DNA of 63,059 nt, the filler included. It is 6 parts of 6 records of this genome, joined end to end, with 100 filler letters (N's around TTAATTAATTAA, not from the genome) between each part and the next. Parts side by side here need not be neighbours in the genome. Positions count along the whole stretch, not along the records: positions 23,906 to 33,778 come from SRR31156797_47577; 5 more parts are not named here. The stretch is one strand, 5' to 3'. Of the stretch, positions 25,319 through 25,564 are shown piece by piece. The translations under genes and the position numbers were made by a program. Under the pieces are notes generated by a model. That model searched no databases, had not been told where the DNA came from, and worked only from the letters and a program-made list of their open reading frames with translations. Every line of letters starts with the position of its first letter. Position 1 is the stretch's first letter.

Positions 25319-25335
25319 GCATGCATACTGCACGC
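25319..25335 (-). promoter_or_regulatory. Bacterial SECIS-like hairpin for UGA #3
   Basis: GCGUGCA-GUA-UGCAUGC (one G-U pair); loop starts 21 nt after UGA with G. Confidence 0.65.
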
Positions 25336-25342
25336 GGTGTCG

Positions 25343-25564
25343 TCAGCCTCAGCCACTCTTGCCTGGTTGTTTCTTGTCCTGGTCGGTGCCGCCGGCACCG
25401 GAGCTGCCGCCGCTTCACCCGCTCTGGGAGCTACCTGCTCCCTCTCCATGGCCGCCTCAGGCGCTTTTGCCCGGGCTGCAGCCGGTGAAGACGACGGCGG
25501 ACCCCGTGATCAGGCTGGCGACGCAAAAGCCCGCCAGGATCATTTTCAGGTCGTTTCCGTCCAT
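25343..25564 (-). CDS. sbtA: Selenocysteine-containing RiPP precursor (SbtA/selenobiotic family), about 73 aa with 3 recoded UGA
   Basis: MDGNDLKMILAGFCVASLITGSAVVFTGCSPGKSA-U-GGHGEGAGSSQSG-U-SGGSSGAGGTDQDKKQPGKSG-U-G-UGA; RBS AAGGAG; UGA at 25457-59, 25415-17, 25349-51 and 25343-45. Missed by the ORF track. Confidence 0.88.
25384..25400 (-). promoter_or_regulatory. Bacterial SECIS-like hairpin for UGA #2
   Basis: CGGUGCC-GGC-GGCACCG; loop starts 22 nt after UGA with G. Confidence 0.7.
25426..25442 (-). promoter_or_regulatory. Bacterial SECIS-like hairpin for UGA #1
   Basis: GGGAGC-AGGUA-GCUCCC; loop starts 21 nt after UGA, with G at loop position 2. Confidence 0.7.

Follow-up and report, generated by a model that had tools for sequence, protein, structure and literature searches.

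The SbtA/SbtM system, in which a small precursor peptide with selenocysteine (Sec) is encoded next to a radical S-adenosylmethionine (SAM) maturase, was reportedly predicted by Haft and Basu in 2011, and in vitro work on SbtM has reportedly been done in the Bandarian group (Lewis et al. in 2021). For another SbtM than the one described below, the conversion of Cys or Sec within a Gly-Cys(Sec) motif into a thio(seleno)oxazole was demonstrated in vitro, with the loss of four hydrogens in two SAM-dependent oxidations (PMC9204691, PMC11002830). The selenopeptides themselves are poorly characterised. According to PMC9204691, at least two Sec residues are present in the SbtA family. [quoted passage not shown] Here we describe an sbtA gene and the 5′ part of an sbtM gene within a stretch of DNA of 63,059 nucleotides (nt), hereafter the window, which consists of six contigs joined end to end. 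Very probably, this locus contains a real sbtA gene for a three-Sec precursor, within a RiPP cassette of the SbtA/SbtM thio(seleno)oxazole type. It is a typical member of a known, curated and biochemically studied family; that the family is known had already been remarked in an earlier note on this DNA, and both SbtA and SbtM are curated in NCBIfam.

Results

Reading frame and product of the sbtA gene

The earlier note described, giving no strand, an open reading frame (ORF) with a ribosome-binding site (RBS) and a leader, running on through several UGA codons. This ORF is located on the minus strand, and its translation with TGA read as Sec (U) reproduced the leader quoted in the note, with the AAGGAG sequence present in front of it (Table 1). 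By the same translation, in-frame UGA was found at codons 36, 50 and 72 within the repeated contexts SAUGG, SGUSG and SGUGU, as had been claimed, and additionally at codons 74 and 99. Two of the three motifs are Gly-Sec (UGA50 and UGA72) and one is Ala-Sec (UGA36), and the core that follows the leader is rich in Gly and Ser. With UGA74 as the most likely stop, the precursor consists of 73 codons with three Sec, in agreement with the size of about 73 residues put forward before. The interval marked in the earlier note is bounded exactly by the end of hairpin 3 (see below) and by the start codon.

A search with the SbtA and SbtM family profiles, which the note had proposed, gave scores above the cut-offs for both. 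The NCBIfam profile TIGR04081, entitled 'SbtA family thio(seleno)oxazole RiPP natural product precursor', matched residues 1-26 of the SbtA leader (profile positions 1-26 of 27) at 37.9 bits, the cut-off being 30.5, and TIGR04082, entitled 'thio(seleno)oxazole modification radical SAM maturase SbtM', matched the adjacent ORF over profile positions 1-443 of 516 at 568.5 bits, where the cut-off is 350. The sbtM gene, like sbtA on the minus strand, starts 78 nt past the stop of sbtA; Pfam matched the Radical_SAM core alone in its ORF (E 3e-16), and the CxxxCxxC motif of radical SAM enzymes is visible in the translation. No second SbtA precursor was found in the window with the leader hidden Markov model (HMM; see below). 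A scan for promoters and terminators around sbtA gave counts near those of shuffled sequences and was left unused as evidence.

Table 1. Positions of sbtA, its UGA codons and hairpins, and sbtM along the window
Feature	Position	Strand	Remarks
RBS AAGGAG	25571-25576	-	6 nt upstream of sbtA ATG; direct sequence reading
sbtA start ATG	25564-25562	-	direct sequence reading
sbtA coding sequence	25343-25564	-	73 codons + UGA stop; Sec at 36, 50, 72; TGA=U translation
sbtA leader	25478-25564	-	codons 1-29; signal-peptide-like, lipobox-like end, Cys29
UGA36 (Sec), SAUGG	25457-25459	-	TGA=U translation; Cys aligned here in L010
UGA50 (Sec), SGUSG	25415-25417	-	TGA=U translation and homologue alignment
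UGA72 (Sec), SGUGU	25349-25351	-	TGA=U translation and homologue alignment
UGA74, most likely stop	25343-25345	-	hairpin offset out of range; TAA in L054, L074
SECIS-like hairpin 1	25426-25442	-	17 nt, 6-bp stem, loop AGGUA, nt 18-34 with the U of UGA36 as nt 1
SECIS-like hairpin 2	25384-25400	-	17 nt, 7-bp stem, loop GGC, nt 18-34 with the U of UGA50 as nt 1
SECIS-like hairpin 3	25319-25335	-	17 nt, 7-bp stem, loop GUA, nt 17-33 with the U of UGA72 as nt 1
sbtM 5′ part, radical SAM maturase	23906-25264	-	about 453 codons; TIGR04082
SbtM N-terminal domain	24650-25264	-	SbtM residues 1-205; window copy without Pfam match
Artificial contig joint	23806-23905	.	N44 + 12-nt all-frame stop linker + N44

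SECIS-like hairpins downstream of the UGA codons

Each of the three UGA codons at positions 36, 50 and 72 is followed by a hairpin resembling the selenocysteine insertion sequence (SECIS) of bacteria (Table 1). Counted with the U of UGA as nt 1, the loops of hairpins 1, 2 and 3 start at nt 24, 25 and 24, and the stems of all three 17-nt hairpins are perfect; these positions equal the distances of +21/+22 given in the earlier note for a 17-nt hairpin after each UGA. As to its statement that the first two positions of every loop are G, a G is indeed present in every loop, but the first two positions are both G only in hairpin 2. Hairpin 3 is located in the 3′ untranslated region (UTR), past the sbtA stop. 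When both strands of the window were examined for hairpins of at least 6 bp with a folding energy (dG) of -7.9 or below and the loop start at nt 24-25, such hairpins were detected after 65 of 17,782 sampled positions and after 10 of 2,232 TGA trinucleotides, and three of these ten TGAs are the in-frame UGA codons of sbtA. The three UGA-hairpin pairs exceed chance.

Conservation of sbtA among SbtM loci

The SbtM protein was scanned against the species genomes of GTDB, and 80 loci (L001 to L080) were obtained. The closest SbtM proteins, with 78-79% identity, are those of two metagenome-assembled genomes (MAGs) of Desulfobacterium sp., and the rest belong mostly to Desulfobacterota and Nitrospirota. 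Using a leader HMM built from a first regular-expression pass over the loci, an SbtA-like ORF was identified in 72 of the 80 loci, with two such ORFs in L029. Among the eight loci without a clear SbtA hit, four (L021, L022, L025 and L037) contain less than 400 nt upstream of SbtM; L048 gave a weak leader-HMM match only. In all the precursors found, the frame stays open beyond the first UGA, and the motifs are conserved as far as the last Sec. Cys is aligned to the Sec sites at the first site of L010, a locus of the cultured carrier Desulfospira joergensenii DSM 10085, in part of the sites of the mixed precursor of L024, and throughout in L023, L033, L070, L072 and L075. Both the exchange with Cys, for which an alignment had been suggested in the earlier note, and the continuation of homologues past the first UGA were observed, contrary to two of the outcomes that the note had named as refuting its proposal. 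Against L001 and L002 the sbtA frame runs without insertion or deletion for 74 codons; the synonymous and non-synonymous changes beyond codon 36 (5/6 and 3/6, respectively) are too few to be informative.

Among the 74 precursor ORFs including that of the window, the number of UGA codons in motif context is zero in five, one in nine, two in 19, three in 30, four in nine and five in two, and three Sec is the commonest count in the family. The high end of this sample is formed by L039, L057 and L069, with four or five Sec codons per precursor, which are located in near-identical repeats of some 21 codons and have a hairpin each. In L043 (from 3371 onward), the sbtA core is lost soon after the first Sec and the gene may be disrupted; the related L071 keeps three Sec sites. 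When the 73-residue SbtA, with U written as C, was compared with 5.8 billion protein clusters, no relative of 40-128 amino acids was found at E <= 0.001, a result that says nothing on truncated database entries because the shorter and longer length bins were outside the search.

Association of hairpins with UGA across the family

For the family counts, from which the window was excluded, a hairpin was scored under a perfect-stem rule with the loop start at nt 20-26 and dG <= -5. Hairpins were found after 156 of 180 UGA codons in [SGA]-U context, 118 of the 180 having the loop start at nt 23-25, and after only three of 79 Cys codons in a context of this kind; the frequency was 297/4,442 for other codons and 0/10 for UGAs located further downstream or in other contexts. 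Under the perfect-stem rule 24 motif UGAs remained without a hairpin, and none of the 14 second UGAs of terminal U-x-U pairs was followed by a hairpin of its own. The hairpins track UGA, not Cys codons. In three loci (L027, L049 and L067), two UGAs at codons 37 and 40, located 9 nt apart (SSUSSU), precede a single hairpin with its loop start at nt 30 when counted from the first of them and at nt 21 when counted from the second, and one hairpin may serve both UGAs.

For a covariance model, R1, the close clade was left out and 59 internal sites of the other loci were used, namely the 60 of 140 sites with the 18-23/29-34 geometry minus one mis-selected row. In the search of the entire window with R1, the best two hits were UGA50 (43.6 bits, E 2.6e-10, 25423-25376) and UGA36 (27.3 bits, E 6.7e-6, 25465-25424); the remaining hits, of 15.4 bits at most, including 60813-60868 (15.4) and 53141-53186 (13.4), are without stem and look like chance. 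Hairpin 3 is offset by one base relative to the internal type and belongs to a distinct terminal type. In an alignment of this terminal hairpin from 18 loci, made without selection for pairing, 96% of the cells were paired and compensatory changes were present in five of the seven pairs. Compensatory cells numbered 24 against 7.3 +/- 2.6 after shuffling, none of 500 shuffles reached the observed score, and pairing decreased to 8-67% in slid controls. Because hairpin 3 lies beyond the stop codon, its conservation is not explicable by coding constraint.

A peptide motif, G-A-G-[GS]-[ST], follows the internal Sec sites, and in the window it is encoded by the hairpins (25384-25442, minus strand). 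The shorter pattern G[AT][GV] was found 4-10 residues past Sec at 90 of 139 internal Sec sites, as against four of 38 core Cys sites, and it is missing from the precursors with Cys throughout. Because the hairpins encode its residues, the conserved peptide motif after Sec is probably the SECIS hairpin translated into protein.

The SbtA leader and the N-terminal domain of SbtM

The leader of SbtA consists of an early Lys, an uncharged hydrophobic stretch and a lipobox-like end with Cys29, a layout that resembles the signal peptide of a lipoprotein. A lipobox rule of PROSITE style is matched by the window SbtA at Cys29 and by 44 of the 74 precursors including it; many of the non-matching precursors end in Ala-x-Ala-like sites. 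SbtA would thus be a candidate for export and lipidation. Because no dedicated protease or exporter is conserved (see below), the general secretory (Sec) and lipoprotein pathway would be the economical route, for which there are precedents among MNIO systems, in bufferins (PMC11626156, PMC12452194) and in the RiPP-lipoprotein DybA (PMC13056109).

For the N-terminal domain of SbtM, a structure of residues 1-185 was predicted from an alignment of 33 sequences, with a predicted local distance difference test score (pLDDT) of 90.5. This model matched NGO1945 (3dee) by Foldseek with E 1.9e-6, and by VIA-align with Z 14.1 over 168 aligned residues at a root-mean-square deviation of 3.4; chain A of TglHI followed with Z 12.0, and the next match, an unrelated protein, with Z 6.5. 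Faint support for DUF2063 was also found at the sequence level, PF09836 in three and PF22106 in one of the 33 members. In the comparison of the domain profile with PDB sequences, the only matches, at E >= 0.28, were to an unrelated tetratricopeptide-repeat protein. From the predicted model, the N-terminal domain of SbtM appears to have the NGO1945/TglI (DUF2063-RRE) fold, and SbtM as a whole looks like a fusion of this recognition module with an oxygen-independent catalyst for the heterocycle that the MNIO enzymes also form.

Evaluation of the SbtA interpretation and its alternatives

The proposal of the earlier note, that the locus encodes a selenobiotic precursor of the SbtA/SbtM type, is supported by the profile matches, the homologues, the exchange with Cys, the association of hairpins with UGA and the hits of R1. 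The following observations weigh against it. The first sbtA motif is Ala-Sec and differs from the characterised Gly-Cys/Sec motif. The sbtM gene is incomplete in the window, ending at the contig joint at 23905. The lipobox rule fails for 30 of the 74 precursors. The 63-nt segments from each UGA were no more stable than dinucleotide shuffles (z 0.01, 0.01 and -1.11), as is expected in GC-rich DNA, and the SECIS signal consists therefore in position and geometry rather than in bulk stability. An Rfam search of 24800-26100 at E <= 10 gave six chance-level matches and no SECIS family; such short hairpins score poorly, so that this result is compatible with a SECIS. Hairpin 3 was missed by R1 in the window search, and the 97% pairing and the covariation of the internal hairpins in the R1 seed are partly by construction, the covariation being genuine but inflated, because the sites were chosen for pairing. 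The tRNA scan of the window detected tRNA-Lys only and no tRNA-Sec, and no sel gene was found among the 42 window ORFs, leaving Sec decoding in the window organism as a prediction from its relatives; in all four genomes of relatives examined (those holding L001, L002, L003 and L010), selB was found above the cut-off and tRNA-Sec above the Rfam gathering score.

Four alternatives were considered. If UGA74 were also read as Sec, the product would contain four Sec and end in a C-terminal U-x-U pair. A TGA is in fact located two codons past the last Sec in 16 of the 19 rows of the close clade, and in four loci (L001, L002, L004 and L013) this second UGA is directly followed by TAA; Haft interpreted a UGA-UAG ending, in another family, as a C-terminal Sec (bioRxiv 10.1101/2022.07.06.499078). 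Counted from UGA74, however, the loop of the sole hairpin lies at nt 18 and so falls short of the range of nt 20-26 of the 156 supported sites, and second UGAs of this kind were without a hairpin of their own in the family as described above. Moreover, TAA occupies exactly the position of codon 74 in L054 and L074, Ser followed by TAA is found in L006, and the stop comes directly past Sec in L007. Readthrough of UGA74 in the window would add 24 residues that are unconserved as protein, passing through the SECIS to the next UGA, and the apparent peptide conservation past UGA74 is the hairpin read in frame. A fourth Sec is accordingly unlikely. The UGA-TAA ending of the four loci may in itself be a tandem stop against SelB-driven readthrough, or a C-terminal Sec. 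Termination already at UGA36, giving a signal-peptide-like product of 35 residues with the downstream conservation non-coding, is what standard gene callers report, and the lack of a full-length relative of 40-128 amino acids among the 5.8 billion protein clusters fits with it. This is nevertheless very improbable in view of the frame kept without indels over 74 codons against L001 and L002 and across 72 loci, of the Cys codons that replace UGA at aligned sites, and of the hairpins that accompany UGA and not Cys; a 35-residue product would in addition offer the adjacent SbtM no modifiable core.

That sbtA is an inactive remnant, left after loss of the Sec machinery or breakage of sbtM, could be argued from the incomplete sbtM in the window. 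The truncation of sbtM, however, is not a mutation because the cut falls exactly on the artificial joint; the start codon, the RBS, the three UGA-hairpin pairs and the stop are all intact, and the closest relatives, with SbtM 78-79% identical, possess selB and tRNA-Sec. A remnant appears quite improbable on these grounds. Finally, one of the antisense ORFs on the plus strand (25292-25690, 25317-25673 or 25015-25488), which appear with 118-157 amino acids in the mechanical ORF list, might be the real gene. These ORFs are without Pfam match at E <= 0.1, long antisense ORFs arise by chance in GC-rich DNA, and all the homology evidence is on the minus strand, so that this possibility is hardly credible.

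Gene organization around sbtAM

The contig with sbtA and sbtM (SRR31156797_47577) occupies 23906-33778, and the DNA below 23806 comes from another contig. The same joint pattern as that next to sbtM was found at 16106-16205, 33779-33878, 46128-46227 and 57921-58020. The missing SPASM domain of the window sbtM is due solely to the cut of the gene at the contig joint. The full-length SbtM homologues are 518-603 codons long as mechanical ORFs, and PF13186 was detected in 10 of 12. Other ORFs touching a joint are likewise cut or artificial, namely, besides sbtM at 23906, a helicase at about 33778, the ORF 33823-38502, and an M18 peptidase fragment at 57509-57976; synteny across the joints is meaningless.

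On the neighbouring contig, an M36 (fungalysin-type) metallopeptidase of 1,866 amino acids with Ig-like domains (16818-22418, minus strand) is adjoined by a PEP-CTERM protein (22846-23802, minus strand). Both were considered as genes of the sbtAM cluster and ruled out, as they are located on a separate contig past the joint 23806-23905. Upstream of sbtA and divergent from it, ThiF-family, cmoA-like and cmoB-like (Methyltransf_9) genes are located at 26384-28950 on the plus strand; among the 12 related loci scanned, this trio is common to the window and L003 only. Pfam analysis of 105 ORFs from these 12 loci gave no recurring neighbour beside sbtA and sbtM, and neither a dedicated protease nor a dedicated exporter is conserved in them.

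Discussion

Proposed pathway

In the interpretation of the locus as a three-Sec sbtA, UGA36, UGA50 and UGA72 would be read as Sec, and the hairpin with a loop containing G/U at a fixed distance from each would represent the bacterial SECIS, recruiting SelB with Sec-tRNA(Sec). Translation would then stop at UGA74, yielding the 73-residue precursor and leaving the third SECIS in the 3′ UTR; SelB-dependent insertion at three sites followed by termination at UGA74 is what we infer from the arrangement of codons and hairpins. SbtM, as a radical SAM/SPASM enzyme, would form a 5-selenooxazole by oxidation of each Sec and of the carbonyl in front of it, its DUF2063-RRE-like N-terminal domain presumably holding the precursor. 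The leader ending at Cys29 might route the modified peptide via the secretory (Sec) and lipoprotein pathway, and the predicted product, with its three selenooxazoles, would be exported and anchored by lipid.

Because ordinary gene callers stop at codon 36, leaving sbtA invisible to them, and no relative of 40-128 amino acids was found among the protein clusters searched, Sec-aware calling is needed for genes of this kind. The 72 precursors provide a rule for such calling, UGA in [SGA]-U context together with a hairpin of which the loop starts at nt 20-26. The window locus itself adds little to the biology of the family, because three Sec is the modal count (30 of the 74 precursors).

Of more weight could be the type of the leader, the DUF2063-RRE fold and the fact that neither a protease nor an exporter of a dedicated kind is conserved. 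Together they hint at a role of the selenopeptide, and they make the membrane or lipoprotein fraction the place to look for the native product and metal binding a property to look for. By analogy with the bufferins, the SbtA product may act as an envelope metallophore. It is possible, if somewhat doubtful, that SbtA/SbtM is the anaerobic radical-SAM selenium counterpart of the bufferin/oxazolin metallophores, with a DUF2063-RRE/radical SAM-SPASM fusion, a signal-peptide leader and an exported, often lipid-anchored product, of which the three selenooxazoles would serve sulfate reducers as chelators of soft metals in the envelope. The sole new part of this work may be the connection of SbtM with DUF2063 and the signal peptide, which was not found in the literature searched, the two primary SbtM papers and all supplements being outside that search.

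Comparison with known systems

The window locus shares with the SbtA/SbtM system the same two-gene layout, the position of Cys/Sec after small residues and one SECIS per UGA. It differs in the three Sec and in the Ala-Sec of its first motif, and the organism is close to the Desulfobacterium MAGs and is not a Geobacter.

In fdhF of Escherichia coli, 11 nt separate the UGA from the hairpin. The SECIS of fdhF is likewise a small stem-loop at a fixed distance past UGA with G/U in the apical loop, but the spacing in sbtA is 13-14 nt to a 17-nt hairpin; in contrast to fdhF, sbtA contains three elements on a single short mRNA, of which the last is located past the stop codon, and without a match to an Rfam family.

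With the bufferins and oxazolins (PMC11626156, PMC12452194), SbtA shares the kind of heterocycle, a 5-thio(seleno)oxazole from Cys or Sec, and perhaps an N-terminus like a signal peptide in place of a classical leader. The SbtA core resembles that of the EGKCG oxazolins in its repeated short Cys motifs within a Gly/Lys-rich stretch. The DUF2063-RRE module is a separate partner in those systems and would be a fused N-terminal domain in SbtM, as modelled on 3dee; the catalyst is an MNIO (DUF692) there and an oxygen-independent radical SAM/SPASM enzyme here. Sulfur is used in bufferins and oxazolins and selenium in SbtA, for the products of which metal binding is a conjecture drawn from the likeness. 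No Pfam match to MNIO (DUF692, PF05114) was found among the 42 window ORFs or the ORFs of the 12 related loci, and SbtA/SbtM is therefore not a member of the MNIO systems, being similar in working at most. A further difference from the bufferin and oxazolin systems is that no DoxX gene is conserved near sbtAM in the 12 related loci.

The RiPP-lipoprotein DybA (PMC13056109) differs from the SbtA/SbtM system in the class of enzyme and in the modification. Its lipobox is located directly before the core, as in SbtA, for which lipidation is predicted from this pattern. Modification of DybA takes place in the cytoplasm, and for its processing the general lipoprotein pathway then suffices without a protease or exporter dedicated to it; by analogy SbtA would be processed and exported in the same way.

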